DNA of 64,000 nt from Candidatus Woesearchaeota archaeon (GCA_018302705.1 JAGVZI010000020.1:1081-65080); one strand, 5' to 3'; numbered from the stretch's first letter, positions 26,911 to 42,784 are shown. Notes: generated from the letters alone by a model not told the origin. Program-made: numbers and translations.

Positions 26911-27330
26911 ATGAGTTTAGTATCAAAATTAAAAACAACTGGCAAAGTAATAGCCCATCCATTAATGGGAGTTTTACCTGAACAAGAATGGTTGGGCAAG
27001 AGAGTTTCTTGGTACAACCATTATTATGCCGTGGCTTCCAATGCTGTGCCAGAAATCTTAACAGGATTGGTAATGTCTTCATTAAATCAAAGCGAAGAAA
27101 GTTTGATGTTGGGATTATACCTCGGGGTAGAAGGTGCAACAAGGCTCTCACAATTAAGAGGGGATCCAATTAACCTCTTCATAGGATGGAGCAAACCAAG
27201 AGGATCCTATGTTTTAGAAGTGCCTTGGGGTTTAGCAAAGAGAACAAGTCTGGCAATTTATAGCTTATCGCAAGATATAGCTAATTACTATAACGGAGAT
27301 AATAGAACTTTAAAAGTTGATAAATCCTAG
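26911..27330 (+). CDS. Hypothetical protein
   Basis: 139-aa ORF in an intergenic position, no recognisable motifs. Confidence 0.3.
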   Translation: MSLVSKLKTTGKVIAHPLMGVLPEQEWLGKRVSWYNHYYAVASNAVPEILTGLVMSSLNQSEESLMLGLYLGVEGATRLSQLRGDPINLFIGWSKPRGSYVLEVPWGLAKRTSLAIYSLSQDIANYYNGDNRTLKVDKS

Positions 27331-30300
27331 AACCACTTCCCCAAACCCATCTGTTTCTCTTTTTCTTGTAAAAACACACTCTCGATCATGTTCTTAGTCA
27401 GCTCAAGTGTTTGCCTTAAGTAAACAGGAAGTTCATATTTATCAACCAAGCTCATGGCAGGCTCAACATATTTGACAATGCTTCCCTCTGCAATTGTAAA
27501 TATTATCCTTCCATGGCATTTGCTGCAAACACCTGCAAGAGGAACCCTTCTAAATTTCAGATTGCAATCAACGCACCTAAACTGCTGCTGGCTAAACTTT
27601 CTTAGATTTCCACGAATATCTCTCATGAAGTGTCTTTCAATTACGAGTCTTGCAACATCGTTTTCGTCAACAGCCCTTATTTTTTCAGCCAGGCTCATTT
27701 GTCCAAATACTTTTTCTTTCATCGTCGGTAATTTCTTGTAGCTGCTGCACAAAACACCCATATTAATATCACTAACCTCATGAGTAAATCCATAATCTTC
27801 ATATTGTTTCTCGGTTCCAAGCCTTTTATTGAGCTGGGGAATTCCTACTTCCCGAGCATCTTTAAATTTTTCAGCAGCCTCGTAAAATTCTAGGGGATAT
27901 CTCCATCCGACATCCATGTCAAACACCATATCATCCACTTCAGCAGGAATTAATCTTGTTGTCAAAACTAATGGAGCATCCTGCCTAGCACCCCTATGCC
28001 CGGGCAGTAATTTTCTGGAGAAATTCAGTAAAGCATCCATCAGCAAAACAACGCAGGCCTCGTCTCCATCGCAGTCTCTTCTCATAATTGAATGCAACAA
28101 TGGATGTGCTAAAAATCCCTGAAGTTTGCTAAACCCGATTATCCTGCAAACAACGCCGGCAGAAGTATGTGGGCTCATTGCCAACACTAAATGCCCGATC
28201 AGCTCTTTCTCATTCTTCAGTCCATAAAACCTCTCCACTCCATAAAATCTCTCTAATAAATTATCTACAAATCTGCTAACTCTAAATAAGACTTCATCAG
28301 CGCCGTCGTCAAAGCTACCATCGCAACTAGGCAAAATAATATCCTGCGGCATAATTTCAACTAGCTGATCTTCTGTTTTTAATTCATTTCCATTAACATC
28401 GTTTTCATACCCTAAAATTCTCAACCACTCAACACCAACCCCGATTTCTCTCGGCTTGAAATGGGTAATGCACATCTCAGTCATATCGTATCTGATTGTC
28501 CCGTCCCTGTTAACATACACATCCTCGGCAGCCCTCAAAATCCCTTTAGCTAGGTTCTCAGGAATATGCTCAGAATTGCTCGTCCCCCTCACACCTTTAA
28601 TCAAATCCGGATAATTTCGTAAATTTAGCCTCTGCAAAACATTTCTAAAATGCTCCTGCACATCTAGCTTCTCACTGCTATAATGTTTCAGCTCGCCATG
28701 TATTTCGCATCTTTCAGGATAATATTTCCTGCATTCATCACAATACCCGACCTTATTAGTTTTGCTCAAGCACTTCTCACATTCCGGATAGATTCTTCTC
28801 TCATTGCATTTCTCACAAAAATAAATGCTAAAATCTGATTTAATATATCCCTTCTCCAGCGCACTCTGCAGGCTTCTCATCTTCCCACCCTGTTCCCCGA
28901 CAGGGAAAAGACAATGCGGATTTCCAACTAATTTCCTTATCTTCCCCTTCTCAGGTCTGCCCATTCTGGCGCCGATATAAAAGCCGCTTTTATCCCTTAG
29001 ACTTACCAAACTTATTCTATTAACAGCATCGAGAACGTTTTCATTATTATCGGGATTCAATGATTTTAGCTTTTCGTCATCATCCAAAAACCCGAGGTTC
29101 GCAGCAAGTCCGATGGCATCGTCCTGCTCAATAAGGATATACTCATTATCGACGACAACATGCGGCAAACCAATCAGCTCCAAAGTTCTCTTGGGGTCCT
29201 CGACTAAATTCTCTTTTTCAAATGGGAGAATTATCTTCTCTATCTTATTATTATCCCTCTTGACGATCATTTTTTTAGAAAGCCAGTCAACTAATTTTGA
29301 AAATTCTTCATAGGTTATATCATTCCAATGATAGGTATATCTTGGATGCAGAGGAACCCCGAGGTTGATAGATAATTTAACAGCAGAATCTCCGCTCAAT
29401 TTCAAGTCCCCTTTAAATAATTTCTTTAGAACTTCCTTATCTATCTCCAACTCATCATTCAATTCAATCAAGCCCTTCCCCTTAACTTTGTTTTCAAATT
29501 CAAGCAGCCACCATTCCTCGCAATACCCTGGCTTAACTAGCTTGTGACCTCGATTAAAAAAATCACCATAATTGATTAAGATGTCTCCTAGGAATAAAAT
29601 CTCCTCCACGTCTTTAGCAAATTTTCTGGCATCCATCTCATTATCAAGGAATAAAACATTTCCATTTTTCAATTTGACAATCGGTCCCTCGATACTGTCG
29701 CAAACACTTAGTGTAGTTGATTTTCCAGGTCGTTCCATTTTCAGCTGCGTTCCATTTGCTATAAAGCCGTCAAGAACACCCATTGTGGCTGGATGCAATG
29801 AAGTGGAACTCAATCCGCTGATTCTGCTCCGGCCATATCTCAATCTTAACCCTCCTTTTCTCATGGGGTGCCCTAGGACAGGCCTTCCAGCAACGATGTC
29901 TTTTAAATAATTATAATCAGGTAAAATCTCGCCGCCGCCGCTTTTCTCTCCTTTGCTTCTGATTTTTTTTTGCAGCTCAACAAAATCCTCCATCCACTTC
30001 CAGTCTTTCATCTCAAAATCCTTATACCAGTTGCTAAACTTTTTCCAAAACTTTCCGCCCTTCTGTGTTAGTCCTTCGCCAATAACCAAACATATCCCGT
30101 TGCTCAAGTAATTGCTCGCAAATCTGTCTAGATCCTTGTAATTGCTAACATCAACTGTCTCGCTGGCATCTCCGCATATCTGCACAGGCAGATGTCTGAT
30201 CATGAACTCGATCTCCTCTTCGCTGGGAAAATATTGTAAGTTAGCAATCCTCTCGTGAAAATCTCTCAGCTCCATAACATATCTTTTAACTTCAATATCA

Positions 30301-30860
30301 TCTGCATCATATTCAGCATACCCCTTCTTCCTTCTTACATAATCAGCCAAAGCAACAAATACGCAAGTGGCTGTAGTTCCTGCGCTTCTTATCGGCCCAG
30401 AAAAAAATAGTGCAAAATACTCCTTTCCATTGTCTCTCCTTTTCTTAAGCTCTAGTCTAACAAACCCCTCGAGGGGAGATGCAACAACGCCAACAGTTAT
30501 ATACGCCAGTCCAACCCTCAATCCAACTTCCATCGCTTCTCTTGTGTCTTTAAATTTGCAAAATTTTTCCATTGCAGTCTCTTCAGCAACCTTAAATGCA
30601 ACCCTCCAGTCCTGCATCCCGAATTCATTCTCTAATTCCTGCAACCTTTCAGTCACTCCAGCATCCTTAATCTGTGGAGCAACAGTCCCTATCAATCCCT
30701 CTACCCTCTCTGCCATGTTCGCTGCCAGGATAATCTCGACATCGTCGCTAGGATCAAGTCCTTTTCCTCTCGCTGTTTTCGCTACATTATATGCCCTGCT
30801 AATCTCTTTCTCCAGAAGTTCAAAATAATTAACTATTTGTCTGCTTGCTTTCATCTCCAA
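27327..30860 (-). CDS. polC: DNA polymerase II (PolD) large subunit DP2
   Basis: 1177 aa, directly downstream of DP1 in the same orientation. Cys-cluster motifs. Confidence 0.85.
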   Translation of the reverse strand: MEMKASRQIVNYFELLEKEISRAYNVAKTARGKGLDPSDDVEIILAANMAERVEGLIGTVAPQIKDAGVTERLQELENEFGMQDWRVAFKVAEETAMEKFCKFKDTREAMEVGLRVGLAYITVGVVASPLEGFVRLELKKRRDNGKEYFALFFSGPIRSAGTTATCVFVALADYVRRKKGYAEYDADDIEVKRYVMELRDFHERIANLQYFPSEEEIEFMIRHLPVQICGDASETVDVSNYKDLDRFASNYLSNGICLVIGEGLTQKGGKFWKKFSNWYKDFEMKDWKWMEDFVELQKKIRSKGEKSGGGEILPDYNYLKDIVAGRPVLGHPMRKGGLRLRYGRSRISGLSSTSLHPATMGVLDGFIANGTQLKMERPGKSTTLSVCDSIEGPIVKLKNGNVLFLDNEMDARKFAKDVEEILFLGDILINYGDFFNRGHKLVKPGYCEEWWLLEFENKVKGKGLIELNDELEIDKEVLKKLFKGDLKLSGDSAVKLSINLGVPLHPRYTYHWNDITYEEFSKLVDWLSKKMIVKRDNNKIEKIILPFEKENLVEDPKRTLELIGLPHVVVDNEYILIEQDDAIGLAANLGFLDDDEKLKSLNPDNNENVLDAVNRISLVSLRDKSGFYIGARMGRPEKGKIRKLVGNPHCLFPVGEQGGKMRSLQSALEKGYIKSDFSIYFCEKCNERRIYPECEKCLSKTNKVGYCDECRKYYPERCEIHGELKHYSSEKLDVQEHFRNVLQRLNLRNYPDLIKGVRGTSNSEHIPENLAKGILRAAEDVYVNRDGTIRYDMTEMCITHFKPREIGVGVEWLRILGYENDVNGNELKTEDQLVEIMPQDIILPSCDGSFDDGADEVLFRVSRFVDNLLERFYGVERFYGLKNEKELIGHLVLAMSPHTSAGVVCRIIGFSKLQGFLAHPLLHSIMRRDCDGDEACVVLLMDALLNFSRKLLPGHRGARQDAPLVLTTRLIPAEVDDMVFDMDVGWRYPLEFYEAAEKFKDAREVGIPQLNKRLGTEKQYEDYGFTHEVSDINMGVLCSSYKKLPTMKEKVFGQMSLAEKIRAVDENDVARLVIERHFMRDIRGNLRKFSQQQFRCVDCNLKFRRVPLAGVCSKCHGRIIFTIAEGSIVKYVEPAMSLVDKYELPVYLRQTLELTKNMIESVFLQEKEKQMGLGKWF

Positions 30861-32430
30861 AGTACGTTATCTTGCTTTCCATTGTGTGTAGGTTGATTAT
30901 TATTGCTCTTGAAGGCTCAGGCTCAATCCCTCTTCTCTCCATATAATCTGTCTGGGAAGCCCAGCAGCCGCAATTTAGCATAACAACATTGTTATGATTG
31001 ACAACGCTGCATCTATGCACATGTCCGGAAATAAAAAAGTCGGGCACTTTATTTAGTATTAAATTATCTTTGCTTCCAGCAAGGTAGGAAGTAGAAGTGT
31101 GTGTAGGAGCCAAATGCCTTTTCTTCAATAGGAGTTTCATTATAAGATCTGCTCTAGTAACCCCCCCTTTTAATCTTATGTCGTCGACAGTATCAGCATA
31201 ATAAGTAAAGCTTCCTCCGTGATATATCAAAACATCAAAGCCGGAAAAATCTTTAGTAGCCCCGATATTGACCAGGGCAGGATTGCTCACAGAAAAAACA
31301 TTTTCCCTCTCCAAGAGGTCGCCGAGGAGCCCTTTGTCTAGAGGCGGCTGTGGTTCATCCAGTCTTACAGCATCATGATTCCCGGGGCACAAGATAATCT
31401 TAATTCTCTCGGGAATTCTCTTGAGCAGCTCATCTAATTTTCTGTATTGCTGATAATAATCTTTTATTTTTAGGTCGTTCTCTTGCCCAGGATAAACCCC
31501 GATGCCCTCGATTAAATCCCCGACAAGAAACAGATACTTTATTTTATCCACTATGCCGCCATTGCCGCCGTTTTCCAATTCCCCGACCCCATTCACCCAG
31601 TCTAAGAATCTGTTAAAATCCTCCTCCAAAAAATTCTTACTGCCAACATGCAGATCAGATATAAAGACAGCATATTCCTCAGCAGGGCTTTTCTTTAATT
31701 CTTTACCAACGGGAATGTCGGGGAAAAAAATTTTATTGGCAAAAACAAATCCGTTATCAATATTCCCGCTGATGCCGATAACCTCGTCCAGCACAATCTC
31801 CCTGGCAGCATCTCTCAATTCATTTTTGTTTCTATTAATCAGCACATTAATTTTCCCGCTCAAATCCTCGAGCTCAAGCAACAGGTTATTGTTCTTAGTT
31901 AATCTCTTATCATTAACGATCCCAATTAAAGCAACACTCTCCTTATTTTTATTGACAATCCTGCTAATAGAGGCTGCATCTTTCAGTTCAATCCTATTGC
32001 ATAAAATCTCTTTCAATATCCTGTATCTATTATTAAAAATGGCAACAAAATCCTCGACACCCACCTTCTTGGGTTTTTCATTATATGATTGTAAAACAAC
32101 AACTCCCCCCTCGCTATCCTCCCGTTCTAGAAAATTCTCGGCTTCCTTATTATTGAATTCAGTTCTTTCAAAAAGCACGTCCAAAAAAGCATTGTAATCA
32201 TCGGCTAATCTCTTTTTTTCAAATAACACCCGGGCATCATCAAAGCCTATCCAATTTAACTCCTTTTTCTTATCCTCCTCAATGCACCTCACTAAATCCT
32301 CGTTTATGACGACAACAGCCCCGCTCATATTCTCAACAAGGTTCTCTTTATCAATGAGATTTATCTTATCTAATAACTCGGGACTAATCAAAAACCCGCT
32401 GTCAGTAAAATATTTCAGCTCCTTGTTCAT
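30829..32430 (-). CDS. polB: DNA polymerase II (PolD) small subunit DP1 (calcineurin-like phosphoesterase)
   Basis: MPP motifs (LCPGNHD, GHVH). 533 aa, immediately downstream of orc1/cdc6. Confidence 0.85.
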   Translation of the reverse strand: MNKELKYFTDSGFLISPELLDKINLIDKENLVENMSGAVVVINEDLVRCIEEDKKKELNWIGFDDARVLFEKKRLADDYNAFLDVLFERTEFNNKEAENFLEREDSEGGVVVLQSYNEKPKKVGVEDFVAIFNNRYRILKEILCNRIELKDAASISRIVNKNKESVALIGIVNDKRLTKNNNLLLELEDLSGKINVLINRNKNELRDAAREIVLDEVIGISGNIDNGFVFANKIFFPDIPVGKELKKSPAEEYAVFISDLHVGSKNFLEEDFNRFLDWVNGVGELENGGNGGIVDKIKYLFLVGDLIEGIGVYPGQENDLKIKDYYQQYRKLDELLKRIPERIKIILCPGNHDAVRLDEPQPPLDKGLLGDLLERENVFSVSNPALVNIGATKDFSGFDVLIYHGGSFTYYADTVDDIRLKGGVTRADLIMKLLLKKRHLAPTHTSTSYLAGSKDNLILNKVPDFFISGHVHRCSVVNHNNVVMLNCGCWASQTDYMERRGIEPEPSRAIIINLHTMESKITYFGDESKQTNS

Positions 32431-32433
32431 CTT

Positions 32434-33657
32434 TCATATTCCCAGGCTGCCCTCTAAGGTTTTCTTGAGCTCGTCGACAGAACTATTTGGTATTGCAAGC
32501 GAAATCTCTCTGGTTCTTCCATATCTTCCCTTGCTGATAACCCTTGCATTAATTATTCCGAACATGTCAAGCTCGGCGATAATATCGCTTACTCTTCTCT
32601 GTGTTAGGGGTTTAAGCCCGCATAATTTGCACTTGTCCTTATACACATCATAAGCATCTCCAGTAAATGCTCTATCTTTCAAATCTAGATTAAATATACT
32701 GTACAAGACTATCTGCCCCTGCTTTGGCTGTGTCTTTACAATATCAACTACCCTGTCTCTTTCAATCTTCTCCTCTGCTTCATCCAAAAATTTTATCGTG
32801 ACTTTCGATTTATTTTTCCTCTCAGCTACCTCTCCAGCAACCCTTATTAATTCTAAAGCCCTTCTCGCATCACCATGCTCCCTTGCAGCATATGCAGCGC
32901 ATTTTTCAATCACTCCCTCTTCTATAACCTCTTTCTTGAAGGCAAGCTGCACCCTTTCTTTTAATATATCTTGCAACTGAACCGCGTTATAAGGCGGGAA
33001 TACCAGCTCTTCCTCGCTCAAGCTGCTCTTAACCCTAGGATCTAAATTATCAGCAAACACAAGATCATTGCTAATGCCTATAAAAGAAATCTCGGCTTTT
33101 TTCAATTCACTATTTATTCTGGTTAAATTATACAAGATTCCATCCCCCATCTTATGCACCAATTGATCAATCTCATCCAATATAAGAACAATCATCTTTT
33201 CATCTTCGTCAATTTTCTCAAGGAATACTTTATAGATTTCATCAGTCGGCAATCCTGTAGCAGGGACCTTGGCGCCAAAACTATTGGCAAGTTGAGCAAG
33301 TAATCTATACTCTGTATCCGCAACCCTTTTCATCTTGCAATTCAAATAAACAATTTGCAAGTTTATATTCTTCTTCCTGGCAGTTTTCATCAGCTGGTCC
33401 GCAACATACTGGCTAACAACTGTCTTGCCGGTTCCAGTCCTTCCATAAAGAAATATGTTGCTTGGCTTCTCCATCCTTAAAGCAGGCGCAAGTATCCCTG
33501 CAATCTGCTGAATCTGCTCATCCCTATGCGGTATAGTATCCGGAGTATAATTTCCTTGTAATGCTTTTTTATTGACAAAAAGTGGGTCTTTCCTCATATA
33601 ATTCTCAAAAAATCCGCTTAATTGCTTAGGTCTGCTTCCCATAAATTCTGAAAACAC
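32434..33657 (-). CDS. cdc6: Orc1/Cdc6 replication initiator
   Basis: AAA+ Walker A LYGRTGTGKT, C-terminal winged helix, 407 aa. Confidence 0.9.
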   Translation of the reverse strand: MFSEFMGSRPKQLSGFFENYMRKDPLFVNKKALQGNYTPDTIPHRDEQIQQIAGILAPALRMEKPSNIFLYGRTGTGKTVVSQYVADQLMKTARKKNINLQIVYLNCKMKRVADTEYRLLAQLANSFGAKVPATGLPTDEIYKVFLEKIDEDEKMIVLILDEIDQLVHKMGDGILYNLTRINSELKKAEISFIGISNDLVFADNLDPRVKSSLSEEELVFPPYNAVQLQDILKERVQLAFKKEVIEEGVIEKCAAYAAREHGDARRALELIRVAGEVAERKNKSKVTIKFLDEAEEKIERDRVVDIVKTQPKQGQIVLYSIFNLDLKDRAFTGDAYDVYKDKCKLCGLKPLTQRRVSDIIAELDMFGIINARVISKGRYGRTREISLAIPNSSVDELKKTLEGSLGI

Positions 33658-34187
33658 AACTTATATTTAAACAATTCTCCAAAAGAAGTCAGACCCACAC
33701 CTTTATTGCACATGCAACCTTCTTTGCGATTATTCTCGAGGTTGGCATATATCATTACTAAGCAGATGAAACCATCTTAGCTAAACAACTCATAAGTTAT
33801 AACACTGTAAAATATATATTAAATAAAATATAATAAAAGATATATATTATCTAAAACGGAAAACCTTAAAAATAAAATAAAAAATAGCGTCGATAAACCA
33901 TTTCTAAAATAAACTATTCTAATATAAATATAATTAAAACATTCTAGCAAAAACACAATTGTTAAATCAAACTAGTCCAAAATCAAATTTCCTCAGGAGG
34001 AACCCCAAAAAACACAAATAATAAGGCTTAAAATCAAGGAATTTTAGCAATAATCTCCATCGGCAATTGGGGTGTAGGGGTAACTATTATTTAACCCCCA
34101 TCTAACAAAAAGACAATAAAATCTAATTTCCATAACAATAATTACAAATAAGAAAAATTTATAAACAATCCTTAATTCTCATCACCA
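33658..34187. other. Candidate replication origin (oriC) adjacent to orc1/cdc6
   Basis: A 530-bp non-coding AT-rich stretch with a strongly AT-rich putative unwinding element (33800-33960). It contains a perfect palindrome TTCCTCAGGAGGAA followed by CCCC (33989-34006), and inverted G-strings (GGGGTGTAGGGG ... ACCCCC) at 34067-34100. Its position upstream of cdc6-DP1-DP2 matches Pyrococcus. Confidence 0.55.
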
Positions 34188-34451
34188 ATGCCAGAAGAAG
34201 ATAAAAAATACTCTAAGCAGTTACTAGGGAAAACAGTTGTAAGTAAGACAGGAAAGCGCTTCGGAGAAGTTGGTGATATTATATTTGAAACTCGCACAGG
34301 AGAATTAATCCAGATACTTCTTAAAAATCCAACAACGTACACAAGAGATTTAGAGCTGGAATCCACTAAAAATGGCGAGCTCCTTATTCCATTCTCAGCG
34401 GTCATAGCCATGGGAGATTTTGTTGTTGTGGCAGAAGAAGACATTATTTAA
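34188..34451 (+). CDS. PRC-barrel domain protein
   Basis: 87 aa, LLGKTVVSKTGKRFGEVGDIIFETRTGELIQILL. Confidence 0.5.
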   Translation: MPEEDKKYSKQLLGKTVVSKTGKRFGEVGDIIFETRTGELIQILLKNPTTYTRDLELESTKNGELLIPFSAVIAMGDFVVVAEEDII

Positions 34452-34545: not shown

Positions 34546-36426
34546 ATGCTAAACTTCAAAACAACAGCAGACCTGCAGATATCTAAAAAAATAGCAGAGC
34601 AGATCATCGGCCAGGATCAAGGTCTGCAATTAATTAAAAAAGCAGCCCAGCACCGTCGTCATGTGCTTTTAATAGGTCACTCAGGGACAGGAAAATCCCT
34701 TTTAGGTCAAGCCTTAGCAGAACTGCTTCCAACAAAAGGAGAATTGCAAGATATTCTCTGCTATCCAAATGAAAAAGACCCGAATAATCCAATAATAAAA
34801 ACATTCCCGGCAGAAGAAGGGGAAAAGACAATAGTCAAATTAAGAAACAGTCTGGAAAACAGCTTATCATCAAGGCGCTTTTATTTGCTAATTTTAGGCT
34901 CAACTTTTTTATTCTTCCTCGGCTATTTTTTATGGTCTGCATTTAAAACATCTCCCTATGGTCCGATAGCAATTGTCCAAGGGCTTTCAACAGTTATTTG
35001 GATTCTCTTCATCGGCTTCTTGTTATTGTCAAGAGCGCCAGGAATGTTAAAAACACTAACAGGTTTAGCAATGGTGCCAAAGCCATTAATAACGCATAAG
35101 AAAGACGACCCAGCGCCATTTATCGAAGCTACGGGTGCACATTCAGGAGCATTACTCGGCGATATACTTCACGACCCCTTGCAGTCTGGGGGTCTAGGCA
35201 CTCCCCCTCATGAAAGAATTGTGCCGGGAATGATCCACAGGGCTAACGGCGGGGTTTTATTTATTGATGAAATCGCAACACTATCCCCAAAATCCCAGCA
35301 AGAATTATTAACTGTTTTGCAAGAAAAAAAATATCCGATAACAGGGCAGTCAGAGCATTCATCTGGAGCAATGACCCGGACCCAGCCGGTCCCGTCTGAT
35401 TTTGTTTTAGTGGCAGCAGGCAATGAAGAAACAATAGCTAAAATGCATCCAGCCCTCCGTTCTAGAATCCGCGGTTATGGTTATGAGATCCATATAAATC
35501 ATCACATGGATGATAACTTAGAAAATCAATTAAAAATTGCGCAATTCATCGCTCAAGAAGTTATCAAAGACGGCAAGATTCCGCATTTTTCAAATGCAGC
35601 AGCAGAGGAGATAATTAATGAAGCAAAGCGCAGGTCAGGCACTTCAGGAAAATTAACGCTGCATTTGCGCGAGCTAGGCGGCTTAGTAAGGGCAGCAGGG
35701 GATTTAGCAAAAGAAGAAGGAAAAGGAATAACAGAAAGAACTCATGTAATCAGGGCAAAATTATTAGCTCGCCCCTTAGAGCAGCAATTGGCAGATAAAT
35801 ACATTGAGGAAAAGAAAAAATATGAAGTAATAATCACTAAAGGAAAGATCATTGGCAGAGTAAATGGGTTGGCAGTGATAGGCACAGAAACCTCGTTATC
35901 AGGAATTGTTCTTCCAATAGAATCAGAAATAACCCCCGGAGGCTCTCGAGGGACAGAGATTGTAGCAACAGGTCAGCTGGGGAAAATCGCAAAAGAGGCA
36001 GTCAAAAATGTTTCTGCAATTATCTTGAAGTATTTTGGCAAGGACTTAAAAGAAAAGCACGATATCTTTGTTCAATTTTTATATACTTACACAGGAGTAG
36101 AAGGGGATTCAGCATCAATAGCAGTAGCAACAGCAATAGTCTCAGCCTTCACAAAAGCCCCAGTAAAGCAAGATTATGCAATGACAGGTTCTTTATCAGT
36201 ACGTGGAGAAGTTCTGGCAGTTGGAGGAGTAACCCAAAAAGCAGAAGCAGCAATCGGAGCAGGCATCACTAATCTAATAATTCCAAAAGCAAATCTTAAT
36301 GATGTTATCTTGTCAGAGGAAAATAGAAAGAAAATAAAAATCATTCCAGTAGAAAGGATTGAAGAGGTTTTAAAAGAAGCATTGGACTGGAAAGGAAAAG
36401 AAAATATCTTGAAGAAATTAAAGTAA
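34546..36426 (+). CDS. lonB: Archaeal membrane-bound Lon protease (LonB)
   Basis: Walker A GHSGTGKS, a TM insertion inside the AAA+ domain, Ser-Lys dyad region GDSASIA. Confidence 0.9.
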
Positions 36427-38963: not shown

Positions 38964-39144
38964 AGAGACCTCTTTAAAGGTCCCTACTAGAAACAGTTTT
39001 TCTGTTATTTGCCTTTGCTCTTTCAGCAGCTTTCTTTATCAAGCCAACAACATCACGGCTTAAAGCTTCTGCAAAATCACCAGAGACATTGCATCCCTGA
39101 GCGTGCTCTTTTATTCTAGACCTTACAACAATCGTATCAGCCAT
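38873..39144 (-). CDS. Small DUF1931-like (histone-fold-like) protein, possibly frameshifted at an A4 run
   Basis: GGAGTG SD-like site lies 6 nt upstream of the ATG. The first 49 aa (MADTIVVRSRIKEHAQGCNVSGDFAEALSRDVVGLIKKAAERAKANNRK) resemble ~56-aa archaeal DUF1931 proteins. With one extra A, the frame would end ...TVSSRDL*. As given, the frame continues into antisense sequence of the neighbouring gene. This ORF is not in the supplied track. Confidence 0.35.
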
Positions 39145-39254: not shown

Positions 39255-39345
39255 TTATTTTAAACAAACCAACAAACAATTCAACACAACTTCAACACTT
39301 AAACACATAAAAATATATAAAGTTCAACACATAACTTTAAAACTT
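39255..39345. promoter_or_regulatory. Reiterated TTCAACAC heptamer/octamer array flanking a TATA-like box
   Basis: Four perfect TTCAACAC copies (39270, 39281, 39313, 39334), plus a degenerate copy and AAATATATAAAG between them. Confidence 0.45.
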
Positions 39346-39372
39346 CAACACATCCGCTACTACTTGAAAAAA

Positions 39373-39942
39373 ATGAATCCAGATGAAATATTCAAGGAAA
39401 ACGTAATTAATTCTTTTAAAAAAGCCCGTAAAGACATGCTAGAGCTACAAAATTCACTGGTTTCACTAAAACAAGAGATTGACCAATTAAGAGCCAATTT
39501 AGAGCCTAAAAGTTCCACAGGAAATGAAGGGGTCTTCAACAAACAAACAAACCAACAAACAAACAAACAATTAAACAAACAAACAATTATTCAACAATCA
39601 AACACACTATCAAAGCTAAACGAGGACCTCGAAGCCCATTTTAATACCCTCACAAAGCAGGAGTTCCTGGTTTTCCTCTCACTTTACCAGTTAGAAGAAG
39701 AGTTAAGCACAGTTAAGTTCTCAGATCTAGCCAACCATTTAAACCTCTCAGAAAGCTCTATCCGTGGCTATATCAACCGTTTAATCCAAAAAGGCTCTCC
39801 AATTCTCAGAAAAAGAGTCAATAACAAGGTAATTAACCTCTCACTTTCATCGGATTTTCGTAATTTAAACCTAAAAAAGCGCCTCACAGACATCTATTAT
39901 CAATCAGATGCCTCTCAGAAACGGCTTTTTGATAGGTATTAA
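39373..39942 (+). CDS. Coiled-coil + C-terminal winged-helix protein (island paralog A)
   Basis: Start at MNPDEIFKEN. A coiled coil, then the NKQTNQQTNKQLNKQT low-complexity region, then wHTH (LTKQEFLVFLSLYQLEEE...SIRGYINRLIQKGSPILRK). Paralogous to 40209..40814. Confidence 0.55.
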   Translation: MNPDEIFKENVINSFKKARKDMLELQNSLVSLKQEIDQLRANLEPKSSTGNEGVFNKQTNQQTNKQLNKQTIIQQSNTLSKLNEDLEAHFNTLTKQEFLVFLSLYQLEEELSTVKFSDLANHLNLSESSIRGYINRLIQKGSPILRKRVNNKVINLSLSSDFRNLNLKKRLTDIYYQSDASQKRLFDRY

Positions 39943-40208: not shown

Positions 40209-40814
40209 ATGCTTAAATGGTTGTTTAAAAAACATTTTAAGGAAGAGTTAAATTCTCATTTTGACAAATTGCATTTAAACTTATCTAGGGCATTTCTGAA
40301 CATCAAGGATGATATAAATAGCATCCACAAGCATCTGAATGAAAAGAGTTCAAAACTATATGAGGTCGAAAAAAGATTAATCGCTCTAGAACACAGGTTG
40401 GAGTATTCTTCAGAACAGGGGTTGGGGAAAGGAAGGATTGCACAAATAGCGCAAAGAGGAGAGATTGAACTGGAGGATGAAAGTCAAGGTGAGATCTCAT
40501 TAATTGAGCATTCTGGTTTGACAGAAACCCAAAAAATAATTCTAGTGGCAATTTACGAGCTTGAAAAGCAGCACAACAGCCCGATATCTTTTAAGTCTCT
40601 TGCAACCTTTCTTTATCCAGGGAAAAATTATAGCTCAATAAGGACAACCATCTCAGATTACCTAGACATCCTGGCAACCTACGGTTTTGTTAAAAAAGAG
40701 AAGGTGAAAAGGGAAACCATTACAATCACCACAAAAAAGGGCAAAGAATTAGCTAAAGAAGTATTAAAACAGAAAAAACAAAGGGAAAGAAGAAAAGTAA
40801 CAGAAGAGATTTAA
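40209..40814 (+). CDS. Coiled-coil + C-terminal winged-helix protein (island paralog B)
   Basis: LIALEHRLEY coiled coil, then wHTH (TETQKIILVAIYELEKQHNSPISFKSLATFL...DYLDILATYGFVKKEK) and a basic tail. Confidence 0.55.
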   Translation: MLKWLFKKHFKEELNSHFDKLHLNLSRAFLNIKDDINSIHKHLNEKSSKLYEVEKRLIALEHRLEYSSEQGLGKGRIAQIAQRGEIELEDESQGEISLIEHSGLTETQKIILVAIYELEKQHNSPISFKSLATFLYPGKNYSSIRTTISDYLDILATYGFVKKEKVKRETITITTKKGKELAKEVLKQKKQRERRKVTEEI

Positions 40815-41935: not shown

Positions 41936-42784
41936 ATGAAAAATGAAGAGGTGTTGGAAAAAGTTGAAAGAGAGTTGAAATTATTAGGTCATAGTCCAAG
42001 AACTATAAATTCCTACTTAACTTATCTAAATGAATTATTCAAATTTACTGGGAAAATACACTCAAGAATCCTGTTCGAAGATATTAAGAAATTCTTAGAG
42101 CATTTAAGCATCGAAAAAAACTACTCTGGATCTAGTTTAAACCTTGCAAGGTCTGCAATCTCTTTCTATTATGAAAAAATGTTGGAAAAATACACAGTTA
42201 GCAAGATAAGAGTTAAGAAAGTGGGCAAAAAACTCCCAAATGTGCTAACAAAACAAGAAGTAAAAAGAATAATCGATGCAGCTTCCAATTTAAGGGATAA
42301 ATTAATCATTCAAATGATGTATTCTTGCGGCCTAAGAGTTTCTGAAGCTGTAAACATAAAGTTAGAAGATTTAGATACCTCTAGACTAACAGGAATAGTA
42401 AGGTCTGGGAAAGGAAATAAAGATAGGGTAATACAATTAAATCCTCCTTTAGTAAACAGTATAGAATCTTATGTTAAAACTAAAAAATTACCTTCTATGT
42501 TCTTGTTTTCTAAATCAAATGGAACCCCCTATACTATTAGGACCTTTCAGATAATAATAAAAAAATTAGCGGAAAAGGCGGGAATAACAAAAAGAGTTCA
42601 TTCTCACATATTTAGACACGCATTTGGTACCCATTTAGTTGAAAAGGGGATAGATATAGTAAGAGTTCAAGGGATGATGGGGCACTCAAATTTAGAAACT
42701 ACAAAATTATACATAAACTTATCAAAAGAACAGTTTAAAGGCGTTGGAAACCTTTTAGATGATTTGGATAAAGATGAAAACTGA
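41936..42784 (+). CDS. Tyrosine recombinase / integrase (XerC/D-like)
   Basis: N-terminal SAM-like core-binding domain. Catalytic box RVHSHIFRHAFGTHLVEKGIDIVRVQGMMGHSNLETTKLYINL, which includes RHxF...H and the catalytic Tyr. Confidence 0.85.
   Translation: MKNEEVLEKVERELKLLGHSPRTINSYLTYLNELFKFTGKIHSRILFEDIKKFLEHLSIEKNYSGSSLNLARSAISFYYEKMLEKYTVSKIRVKKVGKKLPNVLTKQEVKRIIDAASNLRDKLIIQMMYSCGLRVSEAVNIKLEDLDTSRLTGIVRSGKGNKDRVIQLNPPLVNSIESYVKTKKLPSMFLFSKSNGTPYTIRTFQIIIKKLAEKAGITKRVHSHIFRHAFGTHLVEKGIDIVRVQGMMGHSNLETTKLYINLSKEQFKGVGNLLDDLDKDEN

Follow-up and report, generated by a model that had tools for sequence, protein, structure and literature searches.

Within a 64,000-nucleotide stretch of DNA from Candidatus Woesearchaeota archaeon (GCA_018302705.1 JAGVZI010000020.1:1081-65080; hereafter the window), the initiator gene orc1/cdc6 is preceded by a long non-coding gap and followed by the genes for the small and large subunits of DNA polymerase D (PolD), DP1 and DP2. 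All three genes are confirmed by Pfam, and DP1 begins 3 nt past orc1, which places it in the same operon. On the other side of the gap a PRC-barrel gene is transcribed divergently from orc1, with a LonB gene beyond it (Table 1). A prediction made earlier from the sequence of the window (the original prediction) had placed a replication origin in this gap, pointing to its AT richness, a Pyrococcus-like gene order, a palindrome, inverted G-strings, and an unwinding element. The arrangement it described is there. The gap ends at 34187 and measures 530 bp from a GTG start of orc1 at 33657 or 545 bp from an ATG start at 33642, and the order oriC, orc1/cdc6, DP1, DP2 is that of Pyrococcus, in which the origin lies directly upstream of the sole cdc6 gene, among replication genes (PMC4010727). 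The ATG is most likely the true start, because it matches the N-termini of homologues in a six-way alignment and sits about 24 nt past a conserved TATA box. From the comparisons described below, we consider it highly probable that the gap is the chromosomal replication origin of this member of the Woesearchaeota, a DPANN lineage, and that it is of the oriC1 type found in Pyrococcus and Sulfolobus.

The gap is the fourth longest of the approximately 60 intergenic gaps in the window (median 58 bp). The window encodes a single Orc1 homologue. An exact-protein look-up with it returned no record, and a search for homologues returned 8000, the best of which (91-67% identical) are named ORC1-type and belong to Woesearchaeota or Nanoarchaeota, which places the organism among the DPANN archaea. 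ORC1 is single-copy across the phylum, and 208 complete Nanobdellota genomes have been rotated to it in work that did not analyse the DNA (bioRxiv 10.64898/2026.05.13.725050). A literature search found no paper describing origin recognition boxes (ORBs) or mapped origins in DPANN archaea.

Opposed ORBs upstream of orc1/cdc6

Within the window alone the signal above chance is only weak, and the case is therefore built on comparison with relatives. We gathered 80 loci carrying Orc1 relatives (56-89% identical) from species-representative genomes, mostly metagenome-assembled genomes of Woesearchaeota, Pacearchaeota, and Nanoarchaeota. The orc1-DP1-DP2 synteny is kept in 78 of them, and in about 25 the PRC-barrel gene is the divergent neighbour upstream of orc1. 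An unsupervised search for k-mers enriched in the 700 bp upstream of orc1 (67 sequences, with Markov-simulated controls) recovered the ORB-like repeats that the original prediction had expected: the top k-mers assemble into TTCCATAGGAAATCAAGGGGTG, which we take to be the canonical archaeal ORB because it matches both the published archaeal consensus, CTTCCAGTGGAAACGAAAGGGGT, and the Methanomassiliicoccales consensus, GTTCCAGTGGAAATGG-AGGGGT (PMC4153887 Table 2). The resulting consensus for Woesearchaeota and Pacearchaeota, ttTCCAyaGGAAAtnaaGGgGTg, has the same spacing as that of the Methanomassiliicoccales.

In these loci the 500 bp before orc1 are enriched about 10-fold in the ORB. The pattern TCCANN[GA]GA occurs 137 times between -500 and the start codon, compared to 4-23 times in each other 500-bp bin. 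A 30-nt position weight matrix (PWM) built from 93 instances, with the window left out, gives 172 matches of at least 12 bits in the same bin, 18 between -1000 and -500, and 0-7 in each other bin; because upstream regions supplied its training set, the enrichment that the matrix shows there is circular in part, which counts against reading an origin from it, and the regular-expression and k-mer counts are not circular. Sense-strand matches peak at -50 to -150 and antisense matches at -150 to -500, and a distinct group of antisense matches lies no more than 50 bp from the start. An inverted pair of ORBs, 130-550 bp apart, is present in 62 of the 70 loci with enough upstream sequence, and the DNA between the two has a median length of 290 bp and a GC content of 18%.

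We then scanned all 64 kb of the window on both strands with this matrix (about 128,000 positions; 99.999th percentile, 21.7 bits). The second and third best matches both fall in the 545-bp gap, which makes up 0.85% of the window, and both are on the expected strand. They lie at -414 (distal ORB) and -74 (proximal ORB) from the orc1 start, positions and strands that are typical of the related loci. The distal ORB consists of a dyad (CTCCATCGGCAAT, 34055-34067) and a G-string (GGGGTGTAGGGG, 34069-34080) that points away from the AT-rich core of the gap; the G-string, as GGTGTnnGGG, is kept in five relatives and is the best-preserved part of the element. Of the two inverted G-strings in the original prediction, GGGGTGTAGGGG is this conserved element, but its supposed partner, ACCCCC at 34094-34099, is not conserved in relatives and is not part of any recognisable element.

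The proximal ORB had been missed. It comprises a dyad (TTGCATGTGCAA, 33706-33717), the spacer TAAA, and a G-string (GGTGTGGG, 33694-33701) that points to orc1. Its position is conserved across an alignment of six close relatives, in five of which (the window, L001, L081, L082, and L083) the dyad TTCCAnnGGAAA has been replaced by another perfect one, TTGCAnnTGCAA, and the spacer and G-string were kept. As locus L084 carries the canonical TTCCATAAGCAATAGGGGTGTGGGGG at the same place, the alignment identifies the predicted proximal site as a diverged ORB and not a different kind of site. Repeat and tandem-repeat finders run on the gap returned AT-rich low-complexity matches only and no ORB family, because the two ORBs are too diverged from one another for such tools to see.

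In both window ORBs the dyad is on the side of the AT-rich core and the G-string on the outer side, with about 337-339 bp of DNA at 25% GC between the two ORBs. This polarity agrees with the published model in which bound initiators have their winged-helix domains opposed on either side of the unwinding element (PMC6742236; PMC12141716). The gap shows the features of an oriC1-type origin: it adjoins orc1 and holds two ORBs (dyad TTCCAnnGGAAA and G-string) of opposite polarity with AT-rich DNA between them.

Table 1. Positions of genes and of predicted or putative sequence elements in and around the gap, numbered from the first nucleotide of the window
Feature	Position	Strand	Details
PolD large subunit DP2	27327..30860	-	Pfam PolC_DP2_N, PolC_DP2_central, PolC_DP2_cat, 1e-75 to 1e-116
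PolD small subunit DP1	30829..32430	-	Pfam DNA_pol_E_B, Metallophos
orc1/cdc6 initiator gene	32434..33642 (ATG) or to 33657 (GTG)	-	Pfam Cdc6_C 3e-26, Cdc6_lid 6e-23, AAA
orc1 TATA box, putative	33660..33672	-	GTTTAAATATAAG on the orc1 strand, about 24 nt before the ATG
Promoter-proximal mini-ORB, predicted	33677..33689	+	CTCCAAAAGAAGT, directly upstream of the orc1 TATA box; 15.9 bits (dyad-only PWM)
Proximal ORB, predicted	33691..33720	-	AGGTTGCATGTGCAATAAAGGTGTGGGTCT; 12.4 bits, third best match of the window
AT-rich core, putative unwinding element	33790..33905		116-bp conserved block; A+T maximum 33808-33847 (97.5%)
Mini-ORB, predicted	33987..34002	-	CTCCTGAGGAAAT at 33987-33999, overlapping the palindrome TTCCTCAGGAGGAA; 10.6 bits (dyad-only PWM)
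9-mer	34025..34033		GGCTTAAAA, between the mini-ORB and the distal ORB; matches no named element
Distal ORB, predicted	34052..34081	+	AATCTCCATCGGCAATTGGGGTGTAGGGGT; 25.3 bits, second best match of the window
PRC-barrel gene promoter block, putative	34145..34167	+	TATA TTTATAAA at 34158-34165
PRC-barrel gene, divergent from orc1	34188..34451	+	Pfam PRC 3.5e-9
LonB gene, beyond the PRC-barrel gene	34546-36426
Orphan ORB, predicted	39510..39539	+	Core TTCCACAGGAAATGAAGGGGT at 39513-39533; 33.2 bits, best match of the window

Conserved elements within the gap

For footprinting, five further loci with Orc1 proteins 82-91% identical to that of the window were aligned with it across the gap. Between these close relatives, identity at the four-fold degenerate sites of orc1 is only 28-43%, which means that the sites are saturated, and against this background the elements that survive are the TATA blocks at both ends of the gap, the distal and proximal ORBs, a 9-mer, and two shorter ORB-like sites, one at the position of the palindrome and one beside the orc1 promoter. 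The 9-mer GGCTTAAAA is identical in the window, L082, and L001, differs by one base in L081, and is not kept in L084.

The original prediction had also claimed an unwinding element of more than 90% A+T, and the A+T content indeed reaches 97.5% over 40 bp (33808-33847) and 91.7% over 60 bp (33797-33856); the 200 bp at 33792-33991 are the A+T-richest in the whole window (82.5%). Around this maximum a 116-bp block is 80-84% identical to relatives whose synonymous orc1 sites are saturated. Such conservation is unusual and would not be expected of an unwinding element that acted purely through its composition. By analogy with Sulfolobus oriC1, where the unwinding element mostly tolerates mutation and a single essential sequence-specific motif, ucm, is bound by the protein UBP (PMC12141716), the block may be a protein-binding element. 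The likeness has limits, in that the Sulfolobus unwinding element is about 130 bp and its ucm is short and common to Sulfolobales origins, whereas the block in the window is long and confined to the closest subclade. Searching with nhmmer found it in that subclade only, with marginal matches elsewhere, which rules it out as a widely shared motif.

The region between the ORBs is an assembly breakpoint in related metagenomes. Of 30 contig ends that fall no more than 6 kb upstream of orc1, 16 lie at a distance of 85-390 bp from the start of the gene, far more than expected (P=2.5e-10 relative to a uniform spread). Contigs that end in the inter-ORB region are those of L008, L010, L011, L013, L015, L016, L023, L024, L031, L036, L041, L044, L049, L061, L074, L075, and L083, the last of which starts inside a (TA)n-rich block and stands outside the count of 30.

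The palindrome TTCCTCAGGAGGAA, at 33989-34002 and followed by CCCC at 34003-34006, is present as claimed and sits at the position of a conserved mini-ORB, which in relatives reads TCTCCTTAAGAAAT or TTCCTTGAGAAAT; its perfect symmetry and the adjoining CCCC are peculiar to the genome of the window. Taken by itself the palindrome is only marginally unusual, since a perfect palindrome with 6-nt arms and a spacer of at most 4 nt arises in 70% of dinucleotide shuffles of the gap, and one with at least three G/C per arm in 4.9%. The extra copies that the original prediction had suggested looking for were not found in the 64-kb window beyond chance, which rules the palindrome out as a repeated origin motif.

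A matrix restricted to the dyad places 3 of its 18 window matches inside the gap, compared to 0.15 expected. These three are the distal ORB dyad, the predicted mini-ORB at 33987-33999 on the minus strand, and a second predicted mini-ORB at 33677-33689 on the plus strand, where L001 has CTTCCATAGGAAG. Many related loci likewise have a TCCAnAAGAAA element beside or overlapping the orc1 TATA box, and in many a mini-ORB-like TCCAnAAGAAAnnnAGG abuts the TATA box between it and the start codon, at -3 to -11 (L009, L015-L018, L031, L037, L038, L041, L047, L051, and L058) or at -24 to -26 from the orc1 start (L040 and L067). The window and its close relatives differ from these loci in having the mini-ORB upstream of the TATA box. 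The recurrence of such sites suggests that Orc1 may repress its own operon, orc1-DP1-DP2, through a TATA-adjacent mini-ORB.

The TATA blocks are assigned a promoter function from their sequence. Five of the six close relatives share the TTTAAATATAAGT of the orc1 TATA box without change and L001 is one base off, and the distance of about 24 nt between the box and the ATG implies that the orc1 mRNA would be leaderless or have a short leader. The promoter block of the PRC-barrel gene is identical at 23 of 23 nt in the window, L082, and L081 (90% Orc1 identity) and at 21 of 23 in L001, with more differences, at its distal end, in L084.

Could the palindrome, the G-runs, and the AT-rich stretch simply be chance features of a long AT-rich intergenic region, with no function in common? 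Besides the frequency of palindromes in shuffled sequence, all intergenic DNA in the window is AT-rich, neither ACCCCC nor the CCCC of the palindrome is conserved, and the literature ORB core at three or fewer mismatches is not enriched in the window (3 matches, 1.96 expected), a count that is uninformative for the origin itself. However, chance does not readily place the second and third matrix matches in so small a fraction of the window on the right strands, keep the ORB positions in five relatives whose neutral sites are saturated, or produce the roughly 10-fold ORB enrichment across the related loci, and the 56-91% identities of the Orc1 proteins exclude that these loci are misassembled copies of one sequence. 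We regard a chance origin of these features as extremely improbable.

Origin function, promoter function, and known origins

Several observations weigh against the identification of the gap as an origin. The window ORBs are degenerate: the distal one departs from the literature core at 3 positions, as chance matches do about twice per window, the proximal one scores merely 12.4 bits with its dyad changed, and the best ORB of the window lies elsewhere, at 39.5 kb. Cumulative GC skew over the 64 kb forms a low plateau from about 34 kb, with its minimum near 40 kb. In the window, transcription runs mostly outward from the gap (to its left the minus strand carries 72% of coding bases, and to its right the plus strand carries 87%), but the trend is not clade-wide, with a mean of 55% of genes pointing away from the orc1 gap over 55 related loci (P=0.23). 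Finally, some archaea can grow without using an origin, as in the origin-independent replication of Thermococcales (PMC11005403).

The skew pattern is explained by the switch of coding strand at the gap, and skew corrected for coding strand agrees with an origin for plus-strand genes and disagrees for minus-strand genes over these 64 kb, which are too short for the purpose. We therefore dropped GC skew as evidence in either direction, as well as gene orientation as a general argument; neither supports nor refutes the origin call.

A different explanation is that the gap is a divergent promoter and regulatory region only, where Orc1 controls the orc1-DP1-DP2 operon and the PRC-barrel gene, and that replication starts elsewhere or by recombination, as the Thermococcales example allows. 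The conserved TATA blocks at both ends of the gap fit this explanation, as do the mini-ORB directly beside the orc1 TATA box, the elements adjoining or overlapping that box in many loci, and the absence of a skew or orientation signal independent of transcription. On the other hand, regulation has no need of opposed full ORBs 130-550 bp apart around an 18%-GC spacer, as seen in 62 of 70 loci, and opposed ORBs around an AT-rich spacer are the defining layout of an origin (PMC6742236). Autoregulation and origin function also coexist at known oriC1 origins, so that this explanation is mostly an addition to the origin and not an alternative to it. We consider a purely regulatory gap unlikely.

If the gap is an origin, as we favour, Orc1/Cdc6 monomers would bind the two opposed ORBs, with the dyad halves, contacted by the winged-helix domain, turned inward and the G-strings, contacted by the AAA+ domain, turned outward. 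Given this polarity, the two bound initiators would be turned toward one another, with about 337 bp of AT-rich DNA, including the core at 33790-33905, between them. MCM would be loaded on this DNA, the duplex opened, and replication would proceed in both directions. The two mini-ORBs may contribute further binding of low affinity, and the site next to the orc1 TATA box would probably also serve the repression of the operon proposed above.

The predicted layout closely resembles that of known origins. In Pyrococcus abyssi and P. furiosus, ORBs of opposite polarity around an AT-rich unwinding region are accompanied by mini-ORBs (PMC4010727) and share the ORB core TTCCAnnGGAAA followed by GGGGT. 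Unlike Pyrococcus, the window has only two full ORBs and two mini-ORBs, with a longer spacer between the ORBs (about 337 bp), and its host is a mesophilic DPANN archaeon of 37% GC; the Pyrococcus origin was mapped experimentally, whereas that of the window is predicted from sequence. Sulfolobus oriC1 (ORB3-DUE-ORB2, where DUE is the DNA unwinding element), which depends on Orc1-1, likewise has inverted ORBs, polar initiator monomers, and an AT-rich unwinding element by the initiator gene. Sulfolobus differs in having three origins and three initiators, compared to the single Orc1 in the phylum of the window (bioRxiv 10.64898/2026.05.13.725050). The predicted origins of Methanomassiliicoccales also have inverted ORB pairs beside orc1/cdc6, as well as isolated ORBs elsewhere in the genome (PMC4153887). 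A standard origin of the oriC1 type in DPANN archaea is what a specialist would have expected.

Two other replication genes had been named in the window by the original prediction. The PolB gene from 61944 onward is confirmed by Pfam (DNA_pol_B, 1e-39). The protein at 1-546 on the minus strand, which had been called RPA, was confirmed only as an OB-fold protein, cut by the window edge. Neither a tRNA nor an Rfam family matches anywhere in the 64-kb window, and an RNA gene inside the gap was rejected on this result.

An ORB inside a winged-helix gene

The best matrix match of the window, an orphan ORB with no mismatches to the literature core and the same polarity as the distal ORB, lies in frame in a 189-amino-acid gene (39373-39942), where it encodes S-T-G-N-E-G-V. 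The protein has a coiled coil at its N terminus, a linker of low complexity, and a MarR-like winged helix-turn-helix (wHTH) domain. As a homologue of a replication protein it was rejected, having sub-threshold matches to DnaD_N and HTH_36 only, with a fold search leading to generic MarR regulators. Homologous genes occur at twelve other loci, at a distance of 2.2-7 kb from orc1 and with side and orientation unchanged, and their ORBs encode S-[T/I/S]-G-N-x-G-[V/A]. All 70 homologues of the wHTH protein come from Woesearchaeota, Pacearchaeota, or Nanoarchaeota, and the motif is present in 66 of them, with two more differing only at the last residue. Three family members picked by protein similarity alone are all 2.2-5.6 kb from orc1 and contain the in-frame ORB, and an in-frame site with fixed codons near orc1 occurs in at least 15 other lineages.

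The codons of the motif are fixed across 12-13 lineages. A codon-blind peptide search found no copy of the motif spelled with other codons; its serine is TCC in 13 of 13 copies (TCC makes up 8% of serine codons in these loci), and its second glycine is GGG in 12 of 13 (GGG makes up 25% of glycine codons). Conserved winged-helix residues of the same genes, in comparison, use 3-5 synonymous codons each. The alternation between threonine and isoleucine in the peptide is one between ACA and ATA, exactly at the position where the ORB tolerates C or T. In a structure model the motif falls in the least confident, disordered part of the protein, the linker, with a predicted local distance difference test (pLDDT) score below 50. 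Because the codons of the motif are fixed while those of the winged helix vary, and because the motif lies in a disordered linker, these sequence comparisons indicate that selection at the intragenic ORB acts on the DNA and not on the protein. This predicted Orc1 site might act as a roadblock or switch for the regulator gene, belong to the origin as an accessory element, or serve in titration. We found no precedent in the literature for an ORB conserved inside a reading frame; the orphan ORBs of Methanomassiliicoccales are described downstream of genes, whereas this one is in frame in a conserved gene and fixes codons across an order-level clade.

A/C-only low-complexity tracts with CAAA-type repeats flank the intragenic ORB (39260-39352 and 39535-39614) and contain, upstream of the wHTH gene, five copies of TTCAACAC. 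These tracts encode the N/K/Q/T-rich linker and explain why GC skew is strongly negative in the 39-40 kb bin; in relatives, comparable tracts poor in T encode PTDRQTDKQT.

These features raise the possibility that the origin is larger than the gap or double, with the ORB at 39510-39539 and the A/C-only tracts forming a second initiation site or an accessory element for loading, pausing, or titration. In keeping with this, the site is the top-scoring ORB of the window and appears to be under DNA-level selection, intragenic ORBs always lie 2.2-7 kb from orc1 on the same side with the same polarity, three loci (L090, L029, and L064) carry two of them, and the flanking tracts are strand-asymmetric. 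Yet the site has neither an inverted partner nor a strongly AT-rich spacer in the window, with surroundings of 33-35% GC; orphan ORBs away from origins are already known from Methanomassiliicoccales (PMC4153887); and the host gene is clearly translated, as its wHTH part evolves with synonymous changes. We consider a larger or double origin improbable, and favour the gap as the origin.

A separate question is whether the region around the wHTH gene is an integrated element. The segment 39000-47000 has a GC content of 28-33%, compared to about 37-40%, many short open reading frames (ORFs), and several long intergenic gaps, and may be a variable or island-like region beside the origin. It includes a 282-amino-acid tyrosine recombinase (41936-42784, plus strand) with Phage_integrase and N-terminal SAM-like domains. 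Two distant relatives also have a tyrosine recombinase a few kb past the wHTH gene (L087, 14048-14863; L089, 19511 to the end), which makes a chromosomal XerA-like gene, retained near the origin, a better reading than the integrase of a mobile element. With the wHTH gene conserved by orc1 in distant lineages and the recombinase recurring, an integrated element with its own origin is disfavoured, and a chromosomal feature is more likely on this comparison of loci. The gene after the ORB-bearing one (40209-40814, plus strand) encodes another protein with a coiled coil and a winged helix, which faintly resembles the C-terminal winged helix of Cdc6 (E=0.002, below the curated threshold), and a 56-amino-acid ORF just upstream (38974-39144, minus strand) has a weak match to archaeal histones (E=0.008, below the curated threshold).

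A further reading of the intragenic ORB and the conserved core is one that we put forward tentatively, at somewhat less than an even chance: the full-strength ORB hard-wired in an origin-proximal regulator would be a functional satellite of the origin, and, separately, the AT-rich core would carry a long, ucm-like sequence-specific element and be more than DNA that melts easily. A satellite of this kind could couple initiator occupancy to expression of the regulator, for instance through a transcription roadblock or cell-cycle switch, or could serve accessory loading, pausing, or titration, and the ORB would dictate an invariant S-[T/I]-G-N-x-G-V in a disordered linker across Woesearchaeales and Pacearchaeales.

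Cultivation of DPANN archaea is difficult or has not been achieved, and the location of their origins has so far been a matter of assumption. For Woesearchaeales and Pacearchaeales there is now a concrete ORB consensus and a predicted ORB-spacer-ORB layout, usable for genome rotation, for estimates of replication rate from metagenomic coverage, and for assembly checks. That the canonical initiator-origin code would extend unchanged into DPANN archaea comes as no surprise; what may teach something new about origin control are the intragenic ORB and the block conserved within the putative unwinding element.

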